Shown here one piece after another: positions 2,654 to 48,059 of a DNA stretch of 63,367 nt; positions within the stretch are counted from its first letter, which is position 1, and each line of letters begins with the position of its first letter. The translations under genes and the position numbers were made by a program. This DNA is from a virus (taxonomy: Duplodnaviria > Caudoviricetes): positions 1-63,367 of the IMG/VR virus record IMGVR_UViG_3300013137_000021, one strand, 5' to 3'. The notes under the pieces are model-generated. The model had not been told where the DNA came from. It did not search any database and saw nothing but the letters and a program-made list of their open reading frames with translations.

Positions 2654-5541
2654 AAAATATCACCACTTTGGTTGACTATATAGGCGCGTTCGGCAATGAC
2701 ATCGCTCGGAAGGTAAGCACAAATCACGAACCGCTTTATATGCCGGGTACTGACTGGCATCCGAAGCTATACCGCTCGCTCCGCGCGCCGTTCCAGGGTC
2801 AAGGGGATGCAATTATGGGCGCGGTTGAAACGCTGAAACAGAAAGACGCGGCCTTCATAGTGGGGGAAATGGGGACCGGGAAAACCTTAATCGGCGCTCT
2901 AATCCCGTGGACCATGATGGACGCGCCCCGCGTGTTGGTAATGTGTCCCGGACATCTGACCGAGAAATGGGTCCGGGAGATTAAATTGACAGTTCCTGAA
3001 GCGGAAGCGTCCGTTATCAATAACCTGTCGGATGCAATCGCCGTTGACGCAGAAGCCGCGGCCGCTGGAAACAAGCCGCGGTATTGGGTTATGTCCAAGG
3101 AACGAGCAAAACTCACGTATAAATGGATGCCCGTCGGGAAAGTCAAAACTCGAATTGAGCGCCGGTTAATCGTGGACGCGGACAACACGACAATTTGTGA
3201 TGAAAACGACCGTCCGAAGTACGAACTTCTCGAAATCAGTGAAATAGTTTGTCCGCGGTGCGGCAAAATAGTCTTGAAGCCTAAGCCCGCGAGCGCTTCC
3301 AAGAAGAAAAAGAAATCTGAAGAGGATGACGTTCCTATCCCTCTCGGCCCAGCGGATATCAAAAAGCGCAAGTGCTATTGCCAGTGTGGGGAAGCGTTAT
3401 GGCAAGCCGATAATCGTAAATTCAGGCGGTATGCCATAGCGGAATATTTGAAAAAGCACTTGCCGCGGAACTTCTTTGACTTCTTCATCGCGGATGAGGT
3501 ACATGAATTGAAAGGCGCGGATACCGCCCAAGGGAATAGTTTCGGCAGCCTTGCCGCTTGTTCGCGCAAGACAATCTGCCTGACAGGTACGCTCTTAGGT
3601 GGGTACGCTTCACACCTATTTTATTTGAACTATCGCGTCAATTCCACGGGCATGAAACTAGACGGGTTCGAGTACGGTAAAACCAAGAAATTTGTGGAAC
3701 TGTACGGGGTTGAAGAAACGACGGTCAAGGAATACGAGTCCTCCCAGCGGACGGATAACAAGTGCTCTCACGGCACTTCTCGAAGTTCCAGCACGGCAGA
3801 AAAGCCCGGTATCAGTCCTGAACTTTTCATGCACCAGCTAATGGATAAAGCGATATTCTTGCACTTGGAGGATGTTAGTCAGACGCTTCCGGATCTTACA
3901 GAGGATGTCATCGGGGTTGACGTGGATTCAGACGTGATGGACGCATATAACGATATGCAGGATGAAATCAAAGCGGTAATGAATCCGCAATTAGTCAAGG
4001 GGAATCGACAATTACTCGGAACATACCTCGTAAATCTATTAAGTTATGCAGATAAGCCGTTTGGGAATCCGAGCATCTACCTGGACGGATGTGAGTATGA
4101 ACCTGAAGAGTTTCCGCGTGAACGCATTTATCCTAAAGAAAAAAAACTTCGTGAACTGGTACAAAACGAGCTTGCACAAGGGCGAAAATGCCTTATTTAC
4201 GCGACTTTTACGCGCACACGTGATGTGACTACCAGATTGCAAAAAATCTTAGTGGACGCGGGAATCAAGGCGGAAATACTGCGCGGGGACGTTAAACCGA
4301 CCGCCCGCGAAAGCTGGGTTAATGAACACCTGGAAAATGGCATGGAAGTAATGATTTGCAACCCGGAATTAGTCAAGACCGGCCTTGACCTGCTGGACTT
4401 CCCCACTATCATCTACACGCAAACCGGATATAATATTTTTACGCTTCGGCAGTCCTCCCGGCGTTCGTGGCGCATCGGTCAAACTAAGGAAGTCAAAGTC
4501 TTCTACCTGTATTACAAAGGGACCATGCAGGGCCGCGCCGTTGAGTTGATTGGTAAGAAGCTGGATGCAAGCCTTGCGCTTGAAGGGAAGCTGACAGAAG
4601 GCGGACTGGCGAGCCTATCCGATAGCAACGACGGCTTGACCGCTTTGGCGAAGTCATTGAACGAGGGAGGAGTTGAAGGGGTTGAAACGATATGGAAGAA
4701 AATCCGGGATAAGAAGTCAACGCATAATTCCGGGCATAATCCAGAGCCGAAAATAGAAAACTCGGTTACAAGCGGCTCCTCGACTGAAAACCCGGTTGAT
4801 TATGACGCTAAACTTGACGCGGCCCTTGCAAAGAATCCTTATATCGACTGCCTGGAAAGCCGAGAAATCAGAAATAGACGGGCAAAACAAGCGCCCGCGC
4901 CGATTGATAATCTCCCCGCCCTAAGAGCCAATTCTAATACAAGGCTTTACCAAATCAACGCTGTTGCGATTAGACCGCGGGGGGTTGTCATTCCCCTCCC
5001 CGTCCACGGAACAGCCCACACCGTTGAGCATGCAAAGCCTCACGTGGTAATAGAGTCAATCACTACCGGCAACCGTCAGCGCCCCGCGTCCGACAACGTG
5101 ATTTACCTCCCCGCCGCGGCTGCAACCACGGCAGAGGAAGCCCCCTGGATGGGAGAACAGAAATCCTCCCGGAAAATCACGGCCAAAAGAGGGGTCCCCG
5201 CAGCAGGGAAAATCAGGAAGCCGCGGGCCCGTAAACCAGCGGATAACGCCTGGAGGACAAACCCGGATGTCAACCCCGGCCCGGAATACAAGTGGGGAAA
5301 AACTGGATGGCGAAAAATATCTCAACGCAGCATAGACGCGCAAATTAGAAGGGAGGAAAGGGCGCGGGCTATGGCTTGGAAGTATGACGGAGCCACCTCG
5401 CCGGAACCGGCAGAGGATTGGTACTGGGTCAATAGTTATTCCTATCAGAGAAGGCTCAAGGATACAATGCGGATAATCAACGTCCGCGGACACTGGAGAA
5501 TGAGACGAAATGCAGCCATGAAACTGAGAATGGCAGCGTAG
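2641..5541 (+). CDS. SF2 (SNF2/DEAD-like) helicase with Zn-ribbon insert and long C-terminal extension
   Basis: Walker A GEMGTGKT, DEVH, LTGT, TGLDL, QSSRRSWRIGQ (motif VI); CPRC...CQC insert. Confidence 0.9.
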   Translation: MGKLENITTLVDYIGAFGNDIARKVSTNHEPLYMPGTDWHPKLYRSLRAPFQGQGDAIMGAVETLKQKDAAFIVGEMGTGKTLIGALIPWTMMDAPRVLVMCPGHLTEKWVREIKLTVPEAEASVINNLSDAIAVDAEAAAAGNKPRYWVMSKERAKLTYKWMPVGKVKTRIERRLIVDADNTTICDENDRPKYELLEISEIVCPRCGKIVLKPKPASASKKKKKSEEDDVPIPLGPADIKKRKCYCQCGEALWQADNRKFRRYAIAEYLKKHLPRNFFDFFIADEVHELKGADTAQGNSFGSLAACSRKTICLTGTLLGGYASHLFYLNYRVNSTGMKLDGFEYGKTKKFVELYGVEETTVKEYESSQRTDNKCSHGTSRSSSTAEKPGISPELFMHQLMDKAIFLHLEDVSQTLPDLTEDVIGVDVDSDVMDAYNDMQDEIKAVMNPQLVKGNRQLLGTYLVNLLSYADKPFGNPSIYLDGCEYEPEEFPRERIYPKEKKLRELVQNELAQGRKCLIYATFTRTRDVTTRLQKILVDAGIKAEILRGDVKPTARESWVNEHLENGMEVMICNPELVKTGLDLLDFPTIIYTQTGYNIFTLRQSSRRSWRIGQTKEVKVFYLYYKGTMQGRAVELIGKKLDASLALEGKLTEGGLASLSDSNDGLTALAKSLNEGGVEGVETIWKKIRDKKSTHNSGHNPEPKIENSVTSGSSTENPVDYDAKLDAALAKNPYIDCLESREIRNRRAKQAPAPIDNLPALRANSNTRLYQINAVAIRPRGVVIPLPVHGTAHTVEHAKPHVVIESITTGNRQRPASDNVIYLPAAAATTAEEAPWMGEQKSSRKITAKRGVPAAGKIRKPRARKPADNAWRTNPDVNPGPEYKWGKTGWRKISQRSIDAQIRREERARAMAWKYDGATSPEPAEDWYWVNSYSYQRRLKDTMRIINVRGHWRMRRNAAMKLRMAA

Positions 5542-8242: not shown

Positions 8243-8488
8243 ATGTCAGAACCGAGAGTATCGAAAAACTTGGAAATCGTCAATCCCGATAACCGCCCCG
8301 TCGGCATATTCCCCGCGATGGCCGAACGCTTGCGGACTCGATTGGTGGCGTTGTCCTGCGAGGTCGAAAATCTGGACAACGAACTGATTGAAACGATTGA
8401 GAAAATCGTTGAGGTCAAAAAAGAGGGATTGGCAGCGGCTAAAGAGATTCTGGCCGTGGAAAAAGAGTTTCTCAAAAATCAGTTGTAA
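8243..8488 (+). CDS. Small coiled-coil hypothetical protein
   Basis: GGAGG RBS; heptad-like E/K/L pattern. Confidence 0.65.
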   Translation: MSEPRVSKNLEIVNPDNRPVGIFPAMAERLRTRLVALSCEVENLDNELIETIEKIVEVKKEGLAAAKEILAVEKEFLKNQL

Positions 8489-8500
8489 TAAACCACTGTC

Positions 8501-8544
8501 CCGATGCGGACCCCATAACAGCACACGCGCCGGGTCCGCATCGG
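8501..8544. other. Perfect 13-bp inverted repeat with 18-nt loop upstream of the recombinase
   Basis: CCGATGCGGACCC ... GGGTCCGCATCGG. Confidence 0.8.
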
Positions 8545-8594
8545 ATGGCAATTACAAATCCTTCCGGGATTTTTCGATAGAAAGGGTGGTCATT

Positions 8595-9290
8595 ATGACT
8601 GAAACCTCCATAACGCCGCGGCTTCGTGTCAAAGGCTACGTCCGCGTGTCCACAAAAAAGCAGGACATCTCGCCAGAAATGCAGGCCGCAAAGATCCAGG
8701 CATATTGCGAACTTAACGACTTGGAACTGGTGGATATCACAGAGGAACGCCGTAGCGCCAAAGATATCAAACACAGGCGGGAATTTCGACGGGTCCTGTC
8801 TGACATCCTCACGGACAAAGCCGACTCCCTGGTAATCTACAAATTGGACCGGGCGTTCAGATCGACTCGGGATGCACTCGACACCGCTGAAATTTTGAAC
8901 AAACAGGGAAAGGGCCTGCATTCCATCACAGAAAAATTGGACACTACGTCGGCAATGGGGGAGTTTATTTTCACCCTGTTGGCAAGCCTGGCCCAAATGG
9001 AACGCCGGTTAATCGGGGAGCGCACACAGGCCGCGATGCAACAGAAGAAATCCAACGGCGAGAAAGTATCCAGGGAAGCGCCGTTTGGGTATAGACATGA
9101 GGGGAAATTCGTGGTAGAGGACGAGAAAGAACAGTCCTGTATCATGGAAGCGCAGCGGCTGCGAGAGGAAGACCCGAAGAAATCCCTTCGTAATGTCGCC
9201 CGCGAACTAGCGGCCTCTGGTTACAGGAATCGGCAGGGCAAAACATTCCATCCTGAGTGTGTCAAGGCAATGCTGGGAGGTAGTTTCTGA
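8595..9290 (+). CDS. Serine recombinase (resolvase/invertase catalytic domain + short C-terminal DNA-binding region)
   Basis: GYVRVST catalytic motif, YKLDRAFRS, ERRLIGERT, APFGY. Confidence 0.92.
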   Translation: MTETSITPRLRVKGYVRVSTKKQDISPEMQAAKIQAYCELNDLELVDITEERRSAKDIKHRREFRRVLSDILTDKADSLVIYKLDRAFRSTRDALDTAEILNKQGKGLHSITEKLDTTSAMGEFIFTLLASLAQMERRLIGERTQAAMQQKKSNGEKVSREAPFGYRHEGKFVVEDEKEQSCIMEAQRLREEDPKKSLRNVARELAASGYRNRQGKTFHPECVKAMLGGSF

Positions 9291-10967: not shown

Positions 10968-13900
10968 CTAGTTCCCTTCTATGCTCAGGATCATGTTCCC
11001 GTTGATCCAATAGACAGCGCCTCCCATCGGTGTAGATGTGCACGTTATGAGCCAACCGCCGTCACTCCACATATAGAACGTGCTCGCCGGATAAACGCCC
11101 GCGGCAATATTGGCGCTATGTGATTTGTTACGCGACGCATATCCTAGTTCGCATGTGCCGTACCCTGGTGTAGAACTGGCAACGGCTGTGCAATTGACCG
11201 AACCGCACGTGAAATTCCAGCCGGTGCTGCCGGTCACTGAAAACGTCGCTGGATGTATGGGCGGAACCAGGACCGCGTCATGCTGATCGAAATAGACGAC
11301 GTGGCCCGGCGTGATGCTCAGCGCCTTCAACAGTGCCCTCGCGTCCTGGTTGAAAAACGAGTAGGCGCTCCAGTACCCCGGCATTTCGCCGCTATTGTTC
11401 ACTCCATAGTACCCGACCAGTATGTCATTGTCCTTCCATTGCAGATTTTCAGCGCCGTCAGTCGGAGCGTCCGCACTGGCGACCAGCTCGCAGACCGTAT
11501 CCGAAATGCGACGGAGATACACGTAATAAATCGTATAGCCTGTTCCGCTTACGTCGAGACTCAGCCCATTGGCAGGCAACACACTCACACTCACGTCCGG
11601 AAACGTGACGGTCAGGTCCTCCGTGTTCATAGGCGCGAACAGGACCGTTCCGGCGTTGGTCCTGGTCATCCTCGCGGCCAAGCCGTTGAGTTTTTCCTGG
11701 CCCCACGCCGAGGCCGCCGAAATCAACTGATAGACCCGATCGACCTTGCCGTCGATGCACGCGCTGGAATACGTGGACGTGAGCGACGAGACCGCATCGT
11801 CAATCCTCACCACGAACGGCGCGATTGATTCAAGCACAAATGATCCCGTGAGTGCTCCGGTCCTGTCCGGTCGCACGGTCATGATCCATCGCGCGTTGTT
11901 CCCCGGCCAGTTGCGGCTCAAGTAGCCGTTTACCGGCTCCTGAGCGCATGCAACGAGCCTGTTTGCCCAGGCGCCCCAGAAATCCCATGCGTTCGCGAGG
12001 TAAATGTTGACTCGTTGGCCGATATACGCGCTGATCGGCCCGCTCGCGGCCTCGACCTCTATTTTGGCCACGCCGATATCGGCATAGTTAACATAGGAAA
12101 ATCCGCTTACGGTCTGACTGTTCCACGACGTGACCCCGATTCTGTAGTAGAAGCCGTCAATCGGTGGACCATAATTCGCTCCCACCTTGGACGGCGTATC
12201 ACAGTCGAGAATAACCAGATGATCCACGGTGTCGTCATAGTCGTAAACCAGAGCATCGCCCGTGATACTCTGCGCCGCGCCAATCTCAAAACCGGACTCC
12301 TCATCAAAAACGATCTCAGTCGGCGTCGTGGTCCCGTCGTCAGTCTCTCCGTCGCGTTCCACTATCGAAGCGTGCGCGCAGATAAGGCCGACTGATGCGC
12401 CCGCGGCGAATGTGACCCTGATTTTGCCGCCACTGAGCGTCGCTGTACCCGCCTTGATGACCTGCCGTATCGAATACGTGGACGCCTCAACATTGTCCCC
12501 GAGAGCTTTCTGCCAGGAGGTAAACCATGCCGGTTCCGTGGCTTCCAACGGCTCGTCGGGCCGGTCCTCGTGATAGGTCTGGACGTATTGGCTCGTGAGC
12601 AGCTTATGGACATTAGCGTCGTTTGAATCGAATGTCTGGACGCTCTGCCCCGCGACGTTGACTATCCCGCTCGCGCCGCGCCGCTTGCTGACGCGTACTT
12701 CCTCGTCATTGACCGGCGTGATGTCAATCTCCGCGAGGCCGCTGAAATCGGACGGATTCAGGGTGGGTTGCCGAATCGCTGAAACGTCCGCGGCCGGGAC
12801 AAACTTCCCGTTCGCGTCTGTGCGAATCTGCCCGATATGCCGGACTTCGTAACCCGGCCACGCGTCGGCCATGCGGCCATGTTCCGGCGTTTTCGGACTC
12901 AGGAACGGTCTGAGTCTCACATCCAGGTCCGTGTCGTAATGAGATTCGGATTGGTAGTCCGTGCTCAGCCAAGGCCGATTGGTCGCGGGATTGATCGCGT
13001 TGAAATTGAAATTGTCTATCCGAGCCGATAAGTAGGCAAAATACAGAGTGTCGGGCGATAACGCGGTTGCGCTTCGCAAAACATCCCCATCATTCCAATC
13101 CACCCACGCGTCAGCCGTGCCTATTTCGTAGTCAGCGCCCAGATAGTAGAGGTCCCGATTGATCCCGATCTGCGGATAGAGTCCGTCAATCAGCGTCAGA
13201 CTGAGCGTATCCTGGTCCACAAACCTCAACTGATAGGCCGAGTATTCCCGGTAGGTCTCTGCGAAATTCGCGGTCTGACTGATCAGGGAAATACCGAGTT
13301 CATGGATAAAGCGCGGCCCACCGTCCGCTTTTGCGGTGTCGTCGGTCTGGCATCGGCCCACCATGCGAGCGTGTTTGCCGCTGCCCATAGGCGAGAGATA
13401 GCCGTCCACGTTGGGCGTCGCGGACAAAAACATCCGGCCTTGATAGTTCCAAGGAGGCGCGGCGTTGTGCGTATCGTCCGCGGCGATCCCTGCGATAGAA
13501 CTGAATGCGGGGTCCTGGTTGTTCGCGAGGTAGATCCAGTATTCCGTGTCAGGCTGGATATGCGTGAACGTGAGCCTGTTATGCTGCGAATCCCAGTTGA
13601 TGACTGCGAGGTTATTCCGCACGCTGCACGTTGCGCTGGCCGTGATCCATTCGCCATTCACCCAGACCCGACCTGAACCGCCCGGAACGATTTGAAGCCC
13701 GATCTCCGTTGGCCCCACATAGACCACTCGAACATCCGGCGCGGCAATCTGGAGGAAGCCCCGCGGCAAATGACGTTCTTCCTCGTCGTTGTCTAAGCTG
13801 CTATGCCTGGGTCTGCGGAACTGGAATCCATCCCAAAACACCTCGACATCAGGCTCAACAACGATATGGGCCGCGCCCACGTGATAGCCGGGATAGGGCA

Positions 13901-14267
13901 GATCAGAGAGCGCATCGGCCTTGAAATACCAGTTCAGGATCTTGAATCCCTCGGCCTCGGAATCCCAGTAGTATGTGTCCCATATATATTGCCCTGAATC
14001 AGTATATCGAACCGCTTTCCAGATTTCCCCGAATGCTCGCGGGCCGCTGGGTAGTAATTCCACGGACCCGGCTGTGCCGCCCAACGACTCATCAGTAATC
14101 TCCAGGTACTGTTCACCATCCCACCAATATTCGTGCGGCCAGTTCGCGTATCGCGTCCGCGCCCCGTAGACCAAGCCCTTCGGGCTGATGTTCAGCGGGT
14201 TACGACTGTACACGCCCTCTGCCCGCCAGGGCGCGGGAACTTTGATGGTGATGGTGCTATCTGCCAT
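10968..14267 (-). CDS. Large tail fibre / receptor-binding protein with internal repeats
   Basis: 1099 aa, distal tail position, about four repeats of a YxxYL...xxSxxxP...GY/GR motif. Confidence 0.65.
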   Translation of the reverse strand: MADSTITIKVPAPWRAEGVYSRNPLNISPKGLVYGARTRYANWPHEYWWDGEQYLEITDESLGGTAGSVELLPSGPRAFGEIWKAVRYTDSGQYIWDTYYWDSEAEGFKILNWYFKADALSDLPYPGYHVGAAHIVVEPDVEVFWDGFQFRRPRHSSLDNDEEERHLPRGFLQIAAPDVRVVYVGPTEIGLQIVPGGSGRVWVNGEWITASATCSVRNNLAVINWDSQHNRLTFTHIQPDTEYWIYLANNQDPAFSSIAGIAADDTHNAAPPWNYQGRMFLSATPNVDGYLSPMGSGKHARMVGRCQTDDTAKADGGPRFIHELGISLISQTANFAETYREYSAYQLRFVDQDTLSLTLIDGLYPQIGINRDLYYLGADYEIGTADAWVDWNDGDVLRSATALSPDTLYFAYLSARIDNFNFNAINPATNRPWLSTDYQSESHYDTDLDVRLRPFLSPKTPEHGRMADAWPGYEVRHIGQIRTDANGKFVPAADVSAIRQPTLNPSDFSGLAEIDITPVNDEEVRVSKRRGASGIVNVAGQSVQTFDSNDANVHKLLTSQYVQTYHEDRPDEPLEATEPAWFTSWQKALGDNVEASTYSIRQVIKAGTATLSGGKIRVTFAAGASVGLICAHASIVERDGETDDGTTTPTEIVFDEESGFEIGAAQSITGDALVYDYDDTVDHLVILDCDTPSKVGANYGPPIDGFYYRIGVTSWNSQTVSGFSYVNYADIGVAKIEVEAASGPISAYIGQRVNIYLANAWDFWGAWANRLVACAQEPVNGYLSRNWPGNNARWIMTVRPDRTGALTGSFVLESIAPFVVRIDDAVSSLTSTYSSACIDGKVDRVYQLISAASAWGQEKLNGLAARMTRTNAGTVLFAPMNTEDLTVTFPDVSVSVLPANGLSLDVSGTGYTIYYVYLRRISDTVCELVASADAPTDGAENLQWKDNDILVGYYGVNNSGEMPGYWSAYSFFNQDARALLKALSITPGHVVYFDQHDAVLVPPIHPATFSVTGSTGWNFTCGSVNCTAVASSTPGYGTCELGYASRNKSHSANIAAGVYPASTFYMWSDGGWLITCTSTPMGGAVYWINGNMILSIEGN

Positions 14268-35698: not shown

Positions 35699-36345
35699 CC
35701 GAAACTCATCACTCCAGGCTTGGAAGCGTTCAGTTCAACCGCCTTTCGCACCGTGATCCTCACCATGCCCTGCACCGCGCCAATCGGGCCGTAAGCGTCA
35801 ATGACCTGCTCGTCAGTGGCAAAATCCCATCGTTCACCCGAAATAAGCAGATGCCCGCCTATTTCCAGCACGGGTACGCCCCGGCTGGTATTGAAGCCTT
35901 TGTGAAAACACAGGATCTTTTCGGCGCGGTTCCACATGCCTAACTCGTCTATCTTCAGCCCTTCGCTCGATTCCTTGTCCCTGTTCCAGCGGCATGTCAG
36001 CAGTCCGGTAGAGGCGTGAACGACCGTCCCGCCTTCGGTATATTCACCAGTGCCCGCTATGGGGTCGCCGGTATCCGCATTGAATAGTTCAAATGTGCTG
36101 CCGGTTATGTTTCTCGCCTTGTATGTGCCGTTTGCCGCTTCGTTGCCTTCCACATCAGCAACCGTCACCAGGGCATACTCGGGAAAGGGCGCATCATCTA
36201 CCGTAACCACAATGGGCGTGGCATTGCTGGCGTCCATAACGGTCAATGTCCGCTCGGGCGGCACATAAGTCACATATTCGCTAGCCTTCCACATGAAGCC
36301 TTGTTCCTCTCGACGTTGTATGCTAGCGAGAATTGAAGCCCTCAC
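35695..36345 (-). CDS. Probable head-closure protein with inserted beta-domain
   Basis: GTGA coupling to the upstream gene; ASNATPIVVT..GNEAANG..GEYTEGG insert. Confidence 0.6.
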   Translation of the reverse strand: MRASILASIQRREEQGFMWKASEYVTYVPPERTLTVMDASNATPIVVTVDDAPFPEYALVTVADVEGNEAANGTYKARNITGSTFELFNADTGDPIAGTGEYTEGGTVVHASTGLLTCRWNRDKESSEGLKIDELGMWNRAEKILCFHKGFNTSRGVPVLEIGGHLLISGERWDFATDEQVIDAYGPIGAVQGMVRITVRKAVELNASKPGVMSFG

Positions 36346-36752
36346 GTCCTGTCTCCCCACGCAACAAGTCCACAACCGGGCCAGGAATTTGGATTCTTGG
36401 CCGACTCGTCATCCAATAGACCCGCACCCCTAGCTGCGCCCGCCTTCAGGTCCTTAATGACCTGCCGGAGCGTCTTAAAAAACTCTGACCTGCTGGGCAA
36501 CCTCACACGTTCCGGACCCTCACCCAACTCCTGAACGTCATCCATGTAGACCTGAGAAAAGCGGAACATCAGGGCTTCGAGCACCAACGCCGCGACGTAA
36601 TTGCTCTGAGCGTCAGTGAGCGTGACATCACTCCAACCCTGCTCGGCCTTCTTGGAAACGATATAGATCGAGAGGTCATCCTCAATAGTGTTGTCCAATG
36701 CCAGCGCAGGTCGGATATGGACTTTCACAAGTTCTGTGATATCAATCGCCAT
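36342..36752 (-). CDS. Probable head-tail adaptor
   Basis: Size and position after the capsid genes. Confidence 0.55.
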   Translation of the reverse strand: MAIDITELVKVHIRPALALDNTIEDDLSIYIVSKKAEQGWSDVTLTDAQSNYVAALVLEALMFRFSQVYMDDVQELGEGPERVRLPSRSEFFKTLRQVIKDLKAGAARGAGLLDDESAKNPNSWPGCGLVAWGDRT

Positions 36753-36768
36753 TCTCTAAACTCTCAAA

Positions 36769-36850
36769 GGGGCCTGGGATGCTGGGAAAGGAGGATATAT
36801 AGCCAGCATCCCTAATTGATTGGCCCCAATGCGGCGAGGCTTTAGGCCCC
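36769..36850. promoter_or_regulatory. Structured intergenic element; inner hairpin displays CCUCCUUUC (anti-SD-like) on the mRNA strand
   Basis: GGGATGCTGG/CCAGCATCCC perfect stem (36776-36812), loop GAAAGGAGGATATATAG; outer GGGGCCT/AGGCCCC. Confidence 0.55.
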
Positions 36851-36914
36851 TCGTTCTTGGGTCTCACGTCGATGGGCCGGAAGTCTCTTCGACCTCTTCC
36901 CTCGCCACACCAAT

Positions 36915-37223
36915 TTATCGTTTAACCTTCACCGGTTTGCGTTTCGGCTTAACTGCCGGTCGCGACACTTTCCGGGGAAGGGGCTTAGGTTCCTCAACAG
37001 CGGGTGGCGGCGGGGCTGCTTCCTTTGCCACCCCCTGAGCCGGAGAAGGCGGCGCAAAAGCCACCTTTTCCTTCACGAACTTCAAACCGCCCTCGTTGAG
37101 CCATTCCCGAGTTTTTTTTCCGATTGGCTCGGACAGCGGTTTGATTTCATTAAGCTTGATCCGAAATCCCGTCTCCGGGTCAGTGAACTGAGTGCCCGGA
37201 TTGCTCAGACATACTTTTTCCAT
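36915..37223 (-). CDS. Small basic Pro/Lys-rich protein
   Basis: Directly after the major capsid gene. Confidence 0.65.
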   Translation of the reverse strand: MEKVCLSNPGTQFTDPETGFRIKLNEIKPLSEPIGKKTREWLNEGGLKFVKEKVAFAPPSPAQGVAKEAAPPPPAVEEPKPLPRKVSRPAVKPKRKPVKVKR

Positions 37224-37232
37224 GTCCTGCCC

Positions 37233-38357
37233 CTATGCGTCCTCACGTGGGCTCATGTAAACGGGGAAGCCGTTCTCCGAGAAGGCCAGCGAACGGTCCA
37301 CGATGATCCGGCGGATTCTCTTTAACGTTGTGAATCCAGAGATGACCGAGGCATAGGTCCCTTGAATCTGGCGCTGTATAATCCGGTCGTTCTCGACCAG
37401 GAGGCCACGGAACGTCAGATAGTCCATCGCGCGACGGTCGAAGAAAAGAGTCTGATCGTCGGAAAGCTGATCCGTGATGCGGTGCAGCAGGTTTGCTGGG
37501 ATGATGCGGTTTGTATCGACCGATACGACCTGCCCGCCGACGCCCTTCTGAAGCTTGAACTCATCCATGTCGAGGATTTCATTCGCCAGGGGCTCACTCG
37601 TCAGCATATTTACCCAACGGACGCCCACGCGAGAACCACGTACCCAGGGCCGCACGTAGTCAGGGAAATCCAGCGTATCCGCTACGCTCACGCCGATAAT
37701 CGAAGTGGCGTCAGAGCCCCCCGCCTGATCGCCGTTAATCAAGCAGTTCACACCGGCGCGGAACAGCTTCATGCCCAACTCTGTCCCGACTTCCGTCAGG
37801 TACTCACCAAGCAGATTCAGCGGACAGGAAAGGATGACTTCATCGGTGTACTCGATACCTATGGCGGATTTCTTCAGGCGAATCGTCTTCTCACCCCAAG
37901 AAATCTTGGACACCGGGATGGTTTCGGCCTCTCCGATATCCTGCGGCCTGGTGTCTTCGTACTTGATCCAAGGGCTCGTGACCGTGAGTTGCCCCACATT
38001 TTGCGAACTACTTATCAAGTCGGTGTGCGTAGCCGTGGATTCGAGGCCATCTACAACGAACTGGCGCACGATTTCAGGCGCGAGGCGACTGATATCGCCA
38101 CTGAGGGAAATCAGGTTACCAAGGGTCAACTCTGCCGGATTTTCCGCCAAGTCCTGCCATAGGTCCTCCAGTGTGATCGGATTGCCCGCCATGTTTGTCA
38201 GACCGCAAGGCCGCCCCTGTCCGTTGATAGCCCTGGTCTGCATGAATTTCTCAAGCGAAATTTCGCTGCCGGGCTGTCCATCGTTGCCTCTATAGGCTTG
38301 AAGCGGCTCATAGACACGCTCCCGAAAACTGTTGAGAAGACCAAGTTCTCCTGCCAT
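37233..38357 (-). CDS. Major capsid protein (HK97 fold)
   Basis: 374 aa; IGEAETIP, KSAIGIEYTDE; position after scaffold and decoration genes. Confidence 0.85.
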   Translation of the reverse strand: MAGELGLLNSFRERVYEPLQAYRGNDGQPGSEISLEKFMQTRAINGQGRPCGLTNMAGNPITLEDLWQDLAENPAELTLGNLISLSGDISRLAPEIVRQFVVDGLESTATHTDLISSSQNVGQLTVTSPWIKYEDTRPQDIGEAETIPVSKISWGEKTIRLKKSAIGIEYTDEVILSCPLNLLGEYLTEVGTELGMKLFRAGVNCLINGDQAGGSDATSIIGVSVADTLDFPDYVRPWVRGSRVGVRWVNMLTSEPLANEILDMDEFKLQKGVGGQVVSVDTNRIIPANLLHRITDQLSDDQTLFFDRRAMDYLTFRGLLVENDRIIQRQIQGTYASVISGFTTLKRIRRIIVDRSLAFSENGFPVYMSPREDA

Positions 38358-42033: not shown

Positions 42034-43468
42034 GCACGCCTCCCGGCGACAAGGCTAAGTCTGCGCCCTGCCATTTCGAGGTTTCAAAAGGCACCAGGCT
42101 GTAGTCGTCGGCTCCCCGATTGAAAGCCGCCACATAAGCCCCGGATTCGATGTTTATGTCTTCGTGCCCGAGAAGTTTCCGGGCTTCAGGTATGTCGATG
42201 ATTTGGGCCTCTAACTGCGTAGCAATGGCTTGCGCCTTCATCTGCGTAGCTTCGGCTTCTTTGAAAAGGTCGACAGTCATGTTGTCGAGCATGCGAACGC
42301 GAACCGCCACGTCCCCCATGCCCAACAGGGCCAGATTCAGCCGATACCCATGCTCAAGTACTCGGATTGCCCCTTGCTGATAGATTTTGAGCCCCTGGAG
42401 CAATTCCTGGAAAATCACACGAAGCGCCGCTTCACTGAGGCCGAAGTTCCAGCCGAACCAAATAGGATCTCGCTGCAATGCGGAGAAGAGGCTCTGAAGC
42501 GCCACTTGCAGCGTTTCTTTGGCCCCTTCCGCTCCGGCGCTGAGATTCTGAAATTGAAAATCAATATTGTCGAAGCCAATTGCGAGGCCGTCCGCGAGGT
42601 TATGAGCCACGGAGTCCGCTATGGCATCCAAATAAATTTGTGACTTGTTATCGTAAGCTTGTTGGTCCTCACCAGGCACGCGAGGCGGGGCCTTCACTGA
42701 TGCCAGCAAAATTCCCATGCTGCTGGCCTTGGCTACCCATGTCCTGATTTGCTTGATTATATCCCGCTGCATCTGACACGATTCGAGAGCGGAGAGCAGC
42801 GGCGGAATCGGGTAGGGGTTGCTGTCACGCAGCATCAGGGCGTGATACACCGTCTGAATAGCCTGCAATGGCACAGGGCTTGCGCTGGTCGGCTGAAGTT
42901 GCACAAGCCGGAGCGTCCCTTGGTCGTCAGCGTATTGCCAGCGTAGCGAACGTATCGGTGCAGGGAAATACCGTTCGATGCGCTCAAAACTGGTCCGCGG
43001 AACCCACTCGCCGCACGTGGCCCCGGCACGGGCAAGTTGTTCTAACGAACTGTTTATGATGCCTTCCGCGCCGCCAGCATACGGAAAGCAGCGGCTCGCC
43101 AGTTCGTTGCAGGCAGTTATGGCTTCCCGTGCCCGCGCTTCAGTAGCGGCTTGAATCAGGAGCTTATGACCAGGATTTCCGAGGCTGACCGTGGTATGCA
43201 CGAAGCGGCGACAATAGGGGTCTACGACCGAGACCGCATCACAAATATCGTAATAGGCAAAATTGAAATTGGCAGGAATCAAGGAAAAATTATTGAGGTT
43301 AGGTCCAACCCATTCAGCATCCCGACTGACCCTCTTGGCTGTCACCATAGGGTAGCCCGCACGCGGTTTGGTGCGTGGCCGTGCCAGTGATGTTTTCTTC
43401 AGTGGAATCTGACTCTGCGGCCATAATGCGATCTGCTTATCGGTCTTCCGTGGGGTAGCTTTTTTCAT
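41903..43468 (-). CDS. Portal protein
   Basis: 521 aa directly after terminase; PYPIPPLLSALES, IIDIPEARKLLG. Confidence 0.8.
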   Translation of the reverse strand: MKKATPRKTDKQIALWPQSQIPLKKTSLARPRTKPRAGYPMVTAKRVSRDAEWVGPNLNNFSLIPANFNFAYYDICDAVSVVDPYCRRFVHTTVSLGNPGHKLLIQAATEARAREAITACNELASRCFPYAGGAEGIINSSLEQLARAGATCGEWVPRTSFERIERYFPAPIRSLRWQYADDQGTLRLVQLQPTSASPVPLQAIQTVYHALMLRDSNPYPIPPLLSALESCQMQRDIIKQIRTWVAKASSMGILLASVKAPPRVPGEDQQAYDNKSQIYLDAIADSVAHNLADGLAIGFDNIDFQFQNLSAGAEGAKETLQVALQSLFSALQRDPIWFGWNFGLSEAALRVIFQELLQGLKIYQQGAIRVLEHGYRLNLALLGMGDVAVRVRMLDNMTVDLFKEAEATQMKAQAIATQLEAQIIDIPEARKLLGHEDINIESGAYVAAFNRGADDYSLVPFETSKWQGADLALSPGGVHGSDQETDNSEQPDGGQREGVHLRSLPGGVGASRAAGSDDTRD

Positions 43469-45135
43469 GCCGCGTGCCCCCCCACTCTTCGGGTGATTGG
43501 CATAACCATCGGAGATGCTTGCTGGCCAAACTCGTAAGCCGCAATGGTGGCTGAATTCATGGCCATCGCATAATGGTTCTCGACATGCTGCCCGGAGATG
43601 TAATTACGCTTGGTGACGCCGTTAGCCTTGTGCTCCCATTTGACGATCAATTTCTTGAGATGCCGGCGTGCATCCTCAACTAAAGACAGGGCCGCGCCTT
43701 CACAGAGGGAACGCTTGGGAAGCCAGATCAAACCGGCCTCTATCTTGTCTATGAATGCATCCAGACTTTCGGTTCTGTCCTGGCTCACGACGTCGATCTT
43801 ATAGATACCCTCGTGAAGTTCCTCCCCCCGTTTCAACTCCTTGCCCTGAAAATACTGAATCGCCACCCGTCCGGGATGCCTCGAAGCAAACGCCTTTGCG
43901 GAGTGCTTGCTTGGAAGGGCATCCACCACACAGAAGGCTATGCCGAATTTTTCCATGAAGTAGTCAAGGCGGTCCCACGACTCCACTTCCTCGAAGAAAC
44001 TGAACAGGGAAAGCGCACCGCTGCGGATATTAATCGCCACGTGCAGCCGGTCGCCCTGGTCAACCCCCATGAAAGCGCCAATTGCCCCCTCATAGGCCCA
44101 GCCATAGTCGCCTTCACGCTGATTCAGGAGCGTGTCTGTAACCCTGGCCGCGCCCCCGCCGTAAGGGAAGCCTAGAATACTGATCGTAAACCGACTCATC
44201 TTGCTCTGAGAACGGCGTGACTCTTTCCATTCCTGCATGACCGAAGAGGCGTAATTCGGGTAATCAGGCGGGCATATCTGCGTGTACAATTGGCTGAGAT
44301 GATAGCCACGGCGTTTCTTGGACGGTTGGTGTGCAACCCATACGCCCTTGCTCATGTCGAGTTGCGCCCCGCAATTCTCACAGCCTCGGTAATGTGTGGC
44401 GCCGTCGGGAAATTTCTTGCTGCGTCGCTGATTGCTAGAAAGTTCGAGGAAATTCTTAGGGAAGTTCAGTTCGAGGACGTTATCTTTGTTGCCGCAGCTA
44501 GGGCAGATCAGGTGCCAATATCGTTGATCCGACCCAGCGAACATGAAATCAATGTCTTGGCCTGGTAGACCCGGCTGAGAGAGCGCATGTATCCATTGCA
44601 GATCCGAGTGCATAACCCGGTCACGGGCGAGCTGCAAATTGTCAGGATTGATCTCTGATGTCTCATCGAAGAAAATCGCGTCGCCATCGACGCTCTTCGC
44701 GCGGCCCCGCGTATAGAGCCCCCTGAAAAAGATGGAGCCAAAGCCAATGTCTTTCAGGCCGACGTTGTTAATGGCTCCGACCCTATCTCTTAGATATGTG
44801 CTTTCATTTAGAATCGGCAAACATCGGTTGTTAGAGAAATCTGAAACCGCATCATCGTCCTGGAAAAAGTACAGGGCCTTCTTGCCCAGATGTTCGGCAA
44901 CGTAGATGCCCTTCAGAAGTTCGACGGTGGAAATACCGACCTGGGCGGCTTTTTCAAACGTCTGATCCGGGCTGTCATCCCAGATGATATCCCGCAGGTA
45001 CTCATGGCCAAGGAGTGAGTAGGGTGATTGCCGAATCTGTACCCGTGAACGCTTAAACAGCCACTCATGAAACGGCATCCGCCGTTGCGCTCCGACGAGT
45101 TCCTTGACTGGGATTATCTGTTCGAGAATGCTCAT
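43465..45135 (-). CDS. Terminase large subunit (lambda gpA-like)
   Basis: KAAQVGIS, FFDE Walker B, SDQRYWHLICPSC..CENC, GYHLSQL, GVDQG nuclease motif. Confidence 0.9.
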   Translation of the reverse strand: MSILEQIIPVKELVGAQRRMPFHEWLFKRSRVQIRQSPYSLLGHEYLRDIIWDDSPDQTFEKAAQVGISTVELLKGIYVAEHLGKKALYFFQDDDAVSDFSNNRCLPILNESTYLRDRVGAINNVGLKDIGFGSIFFRGLYTRGRAKSVDGDAIFFDETSEINPDNLQLARDRVMHSDLQWIHALSQPGLPGQDIDFMFAGSDQRYWHLICPSCGNKDNVLELNFPKNFLELSSNQRRSKKFPDGATHYRGCENCGAQLDMSKGVWVAHQPSKKRRGYHLSQLYTQICPPDYPNYASSVMQEWKESRRSQSKMSRFTISILGFPYGGGAARVTDTLLNQREGDYGWAYEGAIGAFMGVDQGDRLHVAINIRSGALSLFSFFEEVESWDRLDYFMEKFGIAFCVVDALPSKHSAKAFASRHPGRVAIQYFQGKELKRGEELHEGIYKIDVVSQDRTESLDAFIDKIEAGLIWLPKRSLCEGAALSLVEDARRHLKKLIVKWEHKANGVTKRNYISGQHVENHYAMAMNSATIAAYEFGQQASPMVMPITRRVGGHAA

Positions 45136-45716
45136 TGCAGCGGTTCACCATTCTCCGCAATGGTCTCTTCGATAGTGGCTTCAGCGATGGCCGCAGCTTC
45201 CTCGATGCGCTCCTTGATCTGCACAAAGAGTTCCGGATGGTCGGCCATTTCCTTGCGGATTTCCTCTTGAAGCTGTTCCTTGGCCTTCATGAGAGACCTG
45301 CGCTGCACAGCGGCAGATTTCTCTTTGTCCGCGCTCATTCTGCCGATGCTTGACCAGGTTTGGACGGTCCGTTGCAGGGCCAAGACCAAAGCCCCCATTT
45401 CCTCAATGGTCTTCTTGGTGCGAACGCTGGGCAGATCGCAGATCCAACCCTCGATCTTGTTGGCGAGGATGATGCAGCACCGCTCCTCAACCGGCAGATA
45501 CTGAAGGTCGCGGTAATCAGCGTCGGTCATATTGCCGGGGCGCTGGCGAGCAGCCCACGTCTGAAGAAAGCGGAATTCGGTCTTGTAGCCGTGATGCTCT
45601 AGAATTTGCATCCCCTGCCATGCAGGGCCTTTGATGAGTGCCCACTGGACCAACTCAACGCGGATATCTTCGGGCAGGCGGTCAAACGCAGTAATGGGCA
45701 TGAGTTTCGCGGCCAT
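45132..45716 (-). CDS. Probable terminase small subunit
   Basis: Helical protein directly upstream of the large subunit; FDRLPEDIR N-terminus. Confidence 0.6.
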   Translation of the reverse strand: MAAKLMPITAFDRLPEDIRVELVQWALIKGPAWQGMQILEHHGYKTEFRFLQTWAARQRPGNMTDADYRDLQYLPVEERCCIILANKIEGWICDLPSVRTKKTIEEMGALVLALQRTVQTWSSIGRMSADKEKSAAVQRRSLMKAKEQLQEEIRKEMADHPELFVQIKERIEEAAAIAEATIEETIAENGEPLQ

Positions 45717-45719
45717 GTG

Positions 45720-45932
45720 CTATGGAGCCTCCCGTTTATTCACAACGGGGGTCAGCGGGGACGGCAAGAAGAGATTCAGCAGGGCCTGGGCAATGGCTTG
45801 GTATTTCAACCAGTCCGGTTCCCCCACAATGCCCGCGCCGGTGAGGACCATACCAATCCCACCCAAGATATTGATAAAGATGCTCGGATGCAGCTTCACG
45901 TAGGCTTGAAGCTTCGCCCATACGTCACTCAT
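45720..45932 (-). CDS. Small two-TM membrane protein (holin-like)
   Basis: GGAGG RBS, two hydrophobic segments. Confidence 0.6.
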   Translation of the reverse strand: MSDVWAKLQAYVKLHPSIFINILGGIGMVLTGAGIVGEPDWLKYQAIAQALLNLFLPSPLTPVVNKREAP

Positions 45933-45954
45933 GATTGCCTCCGTCCATTGTGAA

Positions 45955-46261
45955 TAGTGGCGAACGCACCCGTATTTCCCGGAAGGGCAAGAAAATTTCG
46001 GAGTGACAAGATCCTGGGAAATTGCGCCAATGGCGAGTCATTGAAGAAGAACGGGCAATATCGGCGGGGCGCAGGAATGCAGTGCCGCCGAGGGCGTGTT
46101 CGCCGCTACGATGTGAGAAAAGGGCTGATGCTACTATGGTAAGGGGTTGCGCCGAAGTTGCGTGCTGCGACGTTATATCATGTCGGTGAGCAGTCCTTGC
46201 AAGTCGGCGCGCTCCTTTGGTACTTCTCAACATACCTTCGGTATGTTGTGGCGTCCTTTTC
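45955..46261 (+). ncRNA. Putative large structured non-coding RNA, family unrecognised
   Basis: Seven or more nested helices in two domains, about eight G.U pairs versus one A-C on the + strand, GGAA tetraloop; no credible ORF. Confidence 0.65.
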
Positions 46262-46540
46262 ACTCATAGCTACACAATGTCAAGCACAAAGTGCAAAAAA
46301 CCTGTTCTGAACACAAATTGGAATGCGTGTTTCTTGTTTACAGTCACCCCATTTCAGCACAATGCGAACACATTTACCGCTATGGCCTGGGAATCACGGG
46401 GAATCCAGCGCCCCCCCACCCTCCTGGTCGTGGGTGACTATTGGGGTGACTGTTGTATTTCGGCTATTTCGGTAAATTAGTGAAAATATTAGGGGTGAGA
46501 TTCGGGGAAAAGGGATGATTTTCGGCCCCACAAAACACGA

Positions 46541-46578
46541 AAGGGACTCGGAAAGTCTCCGAATCCCTTGGGTTTTTG
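46541..46578. terminator. Intrinsic terminator-like hairpin following the tRNA 3' end
   Basis: AAGGGA-C-TCGGA / TCCGA-A-TCCCTT with T-rich runs on both strands. Confidence 0.65.
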
Positions 46579-46579
46579 C

Positions 46580-46629
46580 TGGTGGCGGTGCAGGGACTTG
46601 AACCCCGGACACTGCGGATATGAGCCGCA
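46580..46629 (-). tRNA. 3' half of a CAT-anticodon tRNA (Met or Ile2) = attP core; not a complete tRNA
   Basis: TGCGG-CTCATAT-CCGCA anticodon arm, CGGGG-TTCAAGT-CCCTG T arm, CACCGCC-A-CCA end; D arm and 5' acceptor strand absent. Confidence 0.9.
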
Positions 46630-46656
46630 AATTCCCCAGAAAATACGTTAAATATA

Positions 46657-47799
46657 TTAGCCTGTTGCGGTCCTGTTTGTTTTTATGGGTGACTGTTTGG
46701 GTGACTCTTGTTCCCGTGAAGTGTCTATCATTTGTTCCAAGGCCGCGCGAATCTCCCGTTGAAAAGGGGGAACATATTTCATGGATGTTTTGATGTCTCT
46801 ATGCCCAAGGGCGCCCTTAATCAACAGGACATTGCCGTGGGTGACTTCCGCTACCCGTTTAGCAAAATGGTGTCTGAGATCGTGGAATCGAAAGGGCCGT
46901 TTGATCCTTGCCAATGCCTTAACAATCGCGAAAGATTTCCGAACTTGGAGATATGGCCGTCCGGTCCTCGGGTTTGGGAAATACCATCCATCTTCATTTG
47001 GCTCTATATCATGCAAAGCCTTTCTTACCACTGAGTTCATATATGCCTGATGTGATCGGTTGCCCTTCTGCCGTACATTAATGACACCCGCTATGAAATC
47101 AACCTCGTCGGCTCGTAACCGAAATACATTGGCGGCCCGCATCCCTGTGTAAATGGCTACGGCCAGCATTTCATAAAATCGCGGAGGCGATCCGCCTGTA
47201 AGGCCCTTCGCTGCCAAGAGAATGTCGGCCTCTTCCTTCAATGTGAGTTCCCGCACGAGGGTATTGTCTGGCCGATAGCGATTCACGGCCTCAAAGGGAT
47301 TCGGCAAACGGCCCTTGAGGGAATAATTCCACGCAGCGCAACCCATCTCCAGGTGCCGGTCACAGTTCGCTGGGGCCGCACCGCTCTGTCTTAAAAAGGT
47401 CTGAAAGCGTCTCAAAATATCAGGGGTGATCTCATTACAGAGCCCATCACCACAAAAATCAATAAGCCGCCTGAGATACAAGCGAGCGTGGGCATAGTAA
47501 CGTCTCTTTTCCGCCTTGAGCTTATCCAGGTACGCGTCGGCAACCTGGGCCAACGTCACGATCACCGTCTGTCTGCTTTCCTTGACACCTATGGAGTGCA
47601 ACCATTCCGCATATTCTGTCTGTGCTTCAGAGAGCGTCCGGGCCTGCAATCTGCGGATATAGCGCTTCCCGTCGATGATTCTGCGGAAATAGAACTGCCG
47701 CTCGTCGCTTCTTTTCTCCCCACACAAAGGACAGGCCCCTTTGCGAGCGTCAAAGAGGTTCCGGCAGCCTCTATTTTGGCAGCGTTGAAGGATAGTCAT
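46657..47799 (-). CDS. int: Tyrosine integrase with N-terminal Cys cluster
   Basis: TGMR, FHDLRH, LGH..SMKY catalytic residues; adjacent to attP. Confidence 0.95.
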   Translation of the reverse strand: MTILQRCQNRGCRNLFDARKGACPLCGEKRSDERQFYFRRIIDGKRYIRRLQARTLSEAQTEYAEWLHSIGVKESRQTVIVTLAQVADAYLDKLKAEKRRYYAHARLYLRRLIDFCGDGLCNEITPDILRRFQTFLRQSGAAPANCDRHLEMGCAAWNYSLKGRLPNPFEAVNRYRPDNTLVRELTLKEEADILLAAKGLTGGSPPRFYEMLAVAIYTGMRAANVFRLRADEVDFIAGVINVRQKGNRSHQAYMNSVVRKALHDIEPNEDGWYFPNPRTGRPYLQVRKSFAIVKALARIKRPFRFHDLRHHFAKRVAEVTHGNVLLIKGALGHRDIKTSMKYVPPFQREIRAALEQMIDTSREQESPKQSPIKTNRTATG

Positions 47800-47804
47800 T
47801 TGTC

Positions 47805-48059
47805 TCACTTTGAAAACCGGCTCAACAACACGAAGAATATGATCGTGAGTGCAAGAAGGCTCGCTACCCAATGTTCTTTCAAGTCCTCCCAAAAGGTTGT
47901 TGTTGGTTGATTACCGCATATCATACAGCGAATCGGGTAAAAGGGTAAGGCAACCAGCCATATCCCCCCGGTCACGAGGCAAGCGATAAAGGTGCCGATT
48001 CCGAAGGCCCGCTTATGACCGGTGACCTTCCCGCAATTTTCACATGCATGCATTCGCAT
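47805..48059 (-). CDS. Small membrane protein, CxxC-hydrophobic-CxxC (LITAF-like) plus C-terminal TM
   Basis: CENC..GIGTFIACLVTGGIWLVALPFY..CMIC; GGAGG RBS. Confidence 0.7.
   Translation of the reverse strand: MRMHACENCGKVTGHKRAFGIGTFIACLVTGGIWLVALPFYPIRCMICGNQPTTTFWEDLKEHWVASLLALTIIFFVLLSRFSK

Follow-up and report, generated by a model that had tools for sequence, protein, structure and literature searches.

Ahead of the packaging genes of an uncultured phage lies a 307-base stretch of nested inverted repeats, set in a non-coding gap, which we read, with a probability of about 0.4, as the structured, untranslated 5' leader of a single late (packaging and structural) operon, carried by the minus-strand RNA. 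The DNA analysed, hereafter the window, is the whole of the linear IMG/VR virus record IMGVR_UViG_3300013137_000021 (63,367 bases, estimated 68% complete), of which identical copies are present in three lake-water DNA metagenome runs, no RNA run being listed with it. The nearest TerL proteins are 62–63% identical to that of the window. Those that bear names belong to Thermodesulfobacteriota, and the genome contigs of the relatives are mostly Desulfomonile or Syntrophaceae MAGs. Along the minus strand the order is integrase, attP, hairpin 46569–46541, arm repeats, element 46261–45955, 70-aa gene, 194-aa gene, TerL and a 521-aa ORF. The annotated ORFs and the tRNA-like core thus agree with an earlier note, made on the letters of the sequence, which had placed the element between the packaging genes and attP. 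The features of the region are the following.

43465–45135, minus strand: large terminase (TerL) of the lambda gpA type (PF05876, E 1.5e-11; PF20454, E 5.7e-4, under its cut-off).
45132–45716, minus strand: 194-aa gene at the place of the small terminase, with no match in Pfam or PHROG.
45720–45932, minus strand: first late gene; its 70-aa product is membrane-type, having one hydrophobic helix, and belongs to no Pfam or PHROG family.
45946–45952, either strand: left arm of an outer helix, CATTGTG, seen on folding with flanks (7 bp with 46272–46278).
45955–46108, either strand: domain 1, a multiway junction with a closing helix of 16–17 bp and a TCGGCGG/CCGCCGA arm capped by GCA-GGAA-TGC (repeats and folding).
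46117–46261, either strand: domain 2, closed by GAAAAGGGC/GTCCTTTTC, with a long arm and a hairpin at 46228–46248 (repeats and folding).
46255–46284, minus strand: conserved block CTTGACA-N14-GTGAAAAGG (TTGACA, 17 nt, AAAAGG), shared at the same place with the related loci L017 and L002/L003/L004.
46272–46278, either strand: right arm of the outer helix, CACAATG, overlapping the promoter-like block.
46285–46300, minus strand: T-rich, UP-element-like tract upstream of the TTGACA hexamer (alignment with relatives).
46340–46456, either strand: arm-type repeats (GGGTGACT family), P side of attP (repeat search).
46541–46569, either strand: 13-bp hairpin with an A-tract on one side and a T-tract on the other, a terminator following the tRNA-like attP core (minus strand by the terminator scan, + strand by eye).
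46580–46628, minus strand: attP core, the 3' part of a tRNA (anticodon CAT by eye; Rfam tRNA 18.1 bits, below threshold).
46657–47892, minus strand: tyrosine integrase (PF00589, E 8e-19).

The first late gene has its ribosome-binding site (GGAGG) about 10 nt below domain 1. The 194-aa gene gives weak tblastn matches (22–30% identity) to genes directly upstream of TerL in 11 relatives' loci, and the 521-aa ORF, for which no Pfam family was found, occupies the portal position beside TerL. The order int-attP-gap-terS-terL is found again in at least six relatives, which supports the reading of the gap as a late leader. Single-protein searches of IMG/VR with TerS, TerL and Int returned no close relative. 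The longest integrase ORF is 411 aa (from a TTG) and exceeds the 356-aa form of the protein collection, so that the true start is probably further downstream.

A complete attP occupies 46340–46846. Its core is a fragment from the 3' end of a tRNA, flanked left and right by arm repeats, and it includes a hairpin bordered by an A-run and a T-run; further GGGTGACT-type copies lie at 46686–46711 and 46836–46846, on the other side of the core. In the three metagenomes dozens of unrelated contigs match the tRNA-like core only, and assemblies break exactly there. The hairpin 46541–46569, possibly a bidirectional terminator, would terminate the rebuilt tRNA gene after integration. Far from this region, where the long minus-strand operon ends against the rightward genes, we noted a serine recombinase (8388–9290; Resolvase domain, E 8e-37) near a 1099-aa ORF (10968–14267); it may be an invertase-type switch.

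The element is spanned by a minus-strand ORF (45925–46263), which we rejected as a gene on codon-position GC, homology and Pfam. Its GC at the three codon positions is.58/.57/.48, versus.56–.63/.38–.45/.54–.70 in five phage genes. A search of 1.84 billion representatives gave a single marginal match (E 3.7e-4), in five stretches, to a 1036-aa protein, and the ORF has no Pfam family. This codon-position GC and the near-absence of homologues confirm that the element is non-coding. The earlier note could not match the element to tmRNA, RNase P, SRP, 6S or a known ribozyme, and this stands: with Rfam 15 the whole window has no match at the gathering threshold, and the four matches at E<=10 in 45700–46700 all fall outside 45955–46261. 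RNAs of the retron, bridge-RNA and omega-RNA types were dropped, because the scanned neighbouring ORFs include no adjoining reverse transcriptase, IS110 or TnpB/IscB gene.

The helices listed in the earlier note are present. The repeat search recovers 45955–71/46092–108 (17 nt), 46111–23/46255–67 (13 nt) and 46228–36/46240–48 (9 nt, perfect), and the others can be followed by eye on the sequence. Folding against shuffled controls, which the note had asked for, shows that both domains beat the shuffles on both strands. For the whole element the + strand reaches -127.8 kcal/mol (shuffles -106.8 ± 5.0; z -4.17; none of 100 as good) and the minus strand -99.7 kcal/mol (shuffles -83.0 ± 4.6; z -3.66; one of 100 as good). 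Taken alone, with 200 shuffles each, domain 1 has z scores of -4.46 (+) and -3.32 (-), and domain 2 of -4.90 (+) and -3.81 (-).

Pairing probabilities of at least 0.8 on both strands are obtained for the two closing helices, TCGGCGG/CCGCCGA, GCGCCG/CGGCGC, TTGC/GCAA, GAC/GTC and the 46228–48 hairpin; for the closing helix of domain 1 they are at least 0.82 on + and 0.94 on minus. The interior proposed for domain 1 holds in part: the TCGGCGG/CCGCCGA arm is well defined (P at least 0.8), while the left interior (45972–46060) is ill-defined on both strands. The folds have 109 base pairs on + and 86 on minus, 61 of them common to both. It is mainly from such shared Watson-Crick pairs that the signal above the shuffles arises. 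Both domains would be enclosed by the 7-bp outer helix, which may be a chance pairing.

We also scanned the genome coarsely in 300-nt windows (n=1928, starts 1–57780). The best one over the element ranks 8th (z -3.35), and those at 36.8–37.3 kb rank above it. The best-folding ones lie at 36750–37260, on both strands, with z down to -4.2 by the regression scan; they bridge the 162 bases that separate ORFs 36342–36752 and 36915–37223, just downstream of a 374-aa ORF.

The side of the element facing attP carries a block that is conserved in related phages. CTTGACA-N14-GTGAAAAGG is found again in L017 and the L002/L003/L004 group, its spacing and orientation unchanged, and there likewise faces the late operon (46255–46300 on the minus strand of the window together with the T-rich tract, 2800–2843 in L017 and 2310–2353 in L003). 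L017 has a TerL 60% and an integrase 41% identical to those of the window, and L003 a TerL 60% identical (TerL values from the best tblastn segment). With its last 7 bases the block supplies one arm of the helix that closes domain 2. The block occurs once in the window (0.04 expected). A scan of the whole of IMG/VR for it gave five stretches, four of which are the contigs of those relatives and one of which lies inside an ORF; L186 was rejected on this ground as a further copy and attributed to chance. Among 401 genomes sampled from the host phylum none has the block, and the reversed control also gave none. A fourth phage, L191 (about 3975–4020), has the same T-run and CTTGACT, followed 17 nt on by TTAATA. 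A T-run with CTTGAC(A/T) thus heads the operon after attP in four phage lineages, three of which share CTTGACA-N14-GTGAAAAGG exactly. From its sequence and place, the block is likely a late-promoter signature for this Desulfomonile/Syntrophaceae-type phage clade.

In the relatives the block is followed by a non-coding leader, and the window has its element, of about 320–322 nt, in that position. The leader of L003 (256–258 nt) ends in an 11-bp hairpin with 9 G-C pairs and a T-run, confirmed as a terminator by the scanning tool; immediately after it come the ribosome-binding site and gene of a small membrane protein, then terS and terL. The leader of L017 (209 nt) ends in a branched hairpin and TTTTTT, seen on folding and by eye and missed by the terminator scan. 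These leaders are less folded than the element: L003 has a z of -1.2, and L017 scores -2.9 for the operon strand and -1.65 for the opposite one. They also have a CCCTCCCTCCCCC run in common (about 2985–3000 in L017, about 2470–2485 in L003). On the operon strand the leaders of all three phages are C-rich (GC skew: window -0.18, L017 -0.11, L003 -0.18), unlike the coding strand of the phage genes, which is G-rich. Such C-rich leaders recall Rho-loading sites.

On the leader reading, transcription would begin at or just below the T-run/CTTGACA-N17-AAAAGG block (46300–46255), the CTTGACA being taken as the -35 side of a putative late-operon promoter. The minus RNA would be about 320 nt long, folded and C-rich, with a perfect 9-bp 5' hairpin (46248–46228), then the long arm and domain 1; beyond these it would meet the ribosome-binding site that serves the first late gene (45932). 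We infer that it would act in cis, gating late-gene expression. The leader could pause or stop RNA polymerase unless the latter is modified by a phage factor, as in the PR'-tR' logic of lambda, and it could, in addition or instead, hide the ribosome-binding site and lend stability to the long messenger. In a lysogen, the late operon would lie directly downstream of the rebuilt host tRNA gene and be co-oriented with it, which a barrier to read-through would fit.

Several observations argue for this leader. Nothing but non-coding sequence separates the block from the first late gene. Three lineages keep the block with its sequence, spacing and orientation, it is near-absent elsewhere, and the relatives carry leaders at the equivalent place, all C-rich on the operon strand. 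The minus RNA taken from the predicted start, which opens with the perfect 9-bp hairpin, beats its shuffles (z -2.87; 1 of 200 as good), and in its minimum free energy fold the first gene has its Shine-Dalgarno region paired to a C/U-rich run (46125–46115). Other observations speak against it. The -10 position is occupied by AAAAGG, which is not sigma-70-like, and the promoter scan (45600–46800) calls no sigma-70-like site on either strand; the block is a promoter candidate by position and by its perfect TTGACA. One arm each of the domain 2 closing helix and of the outer helix lies in or above the block, so that a start below it leaves both arms, which belong to two of the most striking helices, outside the leader RNA. 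The terminator scan finds no canonical terminator on the minus strand of the window leader (46255–45933), and the fold is not conserved in L003 or L017. Moreover, the 24 ORFs that were scanned from outside the late operon, in a contig that is 68% complete, gave no match to an antiterminator family of Pfam or PHROG.

Late control in lambda uses the promoter PR', qut, the 194-nt 6S leader RNA, the terminator tR' and the antiterminator Q. As in the lambda late region, a promoter-like block is followed here by a few hundred bases of folded non-coding leader that heads a single late operon, and the leaders of L003 and L017 end, like that of lambda, in a hairpin and T-run just before the first gene. 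Unlike the lambda leader, that of the window is larger, has two domains and no canonical terminator; it directly precedes terminase and not lysis genes, and the ORFs scanned include no Q-family gene. The put RNAs of HK022 are cis-acting, protein-independent antiterminators made of two stem-loops of about 35 nt with a known consensus. The element would be like them in being a folded leader RNA close to its promoter, one that could affect the transcribing polymerase in cis; it differs from the two short stem-loops described for put.

The earlier note had favoured an RNA from the + strand, opposite to the late operon, on its G.U pairs and a GNRA loop. The G.U argument fails, because the minimum free energy fold of the + strand has 17 such pairs and its shuffles 16.9 ± 2.9. 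The minus fold has 2, versus 6.2 ± 2.0 in dinucleotide shuffles (3 of 100 as low), a mildly unusual shortage that counts against the leader reading. The asymmetry between strands reflects the composition of the G-rich + strand (99 G, 69 C), since shuffles reproduce the + count. This G-richness is in turn a trait common to the leaders, as the equivalents in L017 and L003 show the same skew without the fold. The GNRA loop itself is present on + (GGAA, 46074–77). What is left in favour of the + strand is this one loop, about 1 z unit per domain and the fact that all closing helices would fall inside a + RNA.

These three points would fit a separate + strand non-coding RNA of about 310–620 nt, antisense to the late-operon leader, which would hold the late genes down in the lysogen or have another function in trans. 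It would start just before 45955 and end at the hairpin/T-run 46541–46579. Such an RNA would contain every helix, the two closing ones and the 7-bp outer one among them; both domains have their better z on +, and by eye the hairpin 46541–46569 has a T-run on the + side too. We nevertheless hold such an RNA to be unlikely. The + strand has no promoter-like site in 45600–46800, the terminator scan calls the 46541–46569 hairpin on the minus strand only, the G.U count equals that of shuffles, the G-richness is common to relatives without the fold, and no homologue was found, hence no covariation. Quite unlikely, in our estimate, is a lineage-specific two-domain + RNA of about 330 nt, with a three-way junction closed by CATTGTG/CACAATG, which would be antisense to the late promoter and leader, end at the attP-side terminator, and keep packaging and lysis genes silent during lysogeny or else have a part in packaging. 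Large ornate phage RNAs are known, some near tRNA genes or packaging functions, such as GOLLD, ROOL and the phi29 pRNA; the likeness is in size and setting, and no Rfam model matches the element at E<=10. A staphylococcal-phage RNA made from the terminase genes reportedly triggers CBASS (PMC10686824).

The 61 pairs common to both strands, with their Watson-Crick core, are also what would be expected if the repeats acted as double-stranded DNA, either in a cos-type packaging region, with sites for the terminase small subunit and a bending protein beside the cut site, or as operators for a GAAAAGG-binding regulator looping DNA around the late promoter and attP. The lambda cos consists of cosQ, cosN and cosB, with cosB just upstream of the small-terminase gene. 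The window resembles it by its TerL of the gpA (cos) type, by the position of the element just upstream of the gene in the small-terminase position and by its inverted short repeats. As to operators, GAAAAGGR is enriched in the window (11 copies, 5.3 ± 1.9 expected). Four of the 11 lie in 46117–46768, grouped within 650 bases around attP and the element at 46117, 46254 (minus), 46507 and 46761; the helix that closes domain 2 is built from two of these. Clusters around the block also occur in L003 and L017, and the motif may be the binding site of a shared DNA-binding protein. But some ten nested helices in two closed domains far exceed the needs of protein sites, cosB has no extensive nested fold, and relatives with a 60% identical TerL do without the repeats. 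We thus regard a role at the DNA level as rather improbable.

None of the searches for relatives of the element found one. By blastn it has no match in INPHARED phages. By blastn and nhmmer it is absent from 99, then 162, loci around TerL relatives (IMG/VR, metagenomes and genomes), which match only the attP/tRNA part and the promoter-like block. With a single-sequence covariance model for each domain, run on 57 sources (476,295 bases), only the window scores (best other E 0.28), and these models find no second copy within it. The pattern of the domain 1 closing helix retrieved 20 stretches from IMG/VR, all rejected as chance because they lie in regions of 60–83% GC and have low model scores (best 13.4 bits, E 1). 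In 70 genomes of the likely host order the one match, of 48 nt, was unconfirmed by the model and discarded as a chance likeness in unrelated sequence. The nearest integrases are 56% and 49% identical to that of the window, and an int-attP search based on the integrase added one locus, L191, which is without the element. In the three lake metagenomes, at 80% likeness or more, the element is covered by the phage's own contigs only; the copies are identical, with no variants, joints or ends inside it. The fold is thus real, non-coding, unclassified and unique to one uncultured phage, and as such it cannot yet define a family or settle an open question. Since no relative was found anywhere searched, the element is most likely the folded start of the late mRNA and not a proven new RNA gene.

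An orphan sequence may also have no dedicated function. It would then be a spacer in which palindromes have built up, or else an ordinary leader that has received one or two miniature inverted-repeat insertions, since decayed. Coding windows of the same genome score equal or better folds, and related leaders work without the element. Correia-type elements are miniature inverted-repeat elements, and domain 1 resembles them in its size (about 150 bp), its terminal inverted repeats and the TA at both ends: its arms are of 17 nt, and their outermost bases can be read, by eye, as a TA flank around 15-bp repeats. Domain 2 is flanked by GCTAC, also by eye. The element is however single copy everywhere searched, unlike Correia-type elements. 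An insertion would leave unexplained that there is no second copy in the window, none in the 70 genomes of the likely host order and none at 80% likeness or more in the three lake metagenomes, where dozens of contigs cover the tRNA core. Domain 2, for its part, is not an insertion, because one of its arms is the conserved block itself. On balance we doubt that the element is without function.

Folded RNAs at this place are not without parallel. A survey of IMG/VR reported cis-regulatory RNA candidates within 25 nt of start codons, 14 of them upstream of a putative large terminase; the candidates, as described there, are of 29–151 nt and were required to have at least 3 unique regions and covariation (PMC10690425). 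The element differs from the candidates so described in its length of 307 nt and in being unique, and a sub-part of it is possibly listed among them (PMC10690425).

The likeliest identity of the element remains an unusually ornate version of the phage late-operon leader, a known type of element. To our knowledge nothing is known of late-gene control in phages of Desulfomonile/Syntrophaceae-like anaerobes. If the leader reading is true, the element would be an unusually large, two-domain and terminator-less case among the little-studied folded leaders that head phage packaging operons, and late promoters of this phage clade could readily be traced through CTTGACA-N14-GTGAAAAGG.
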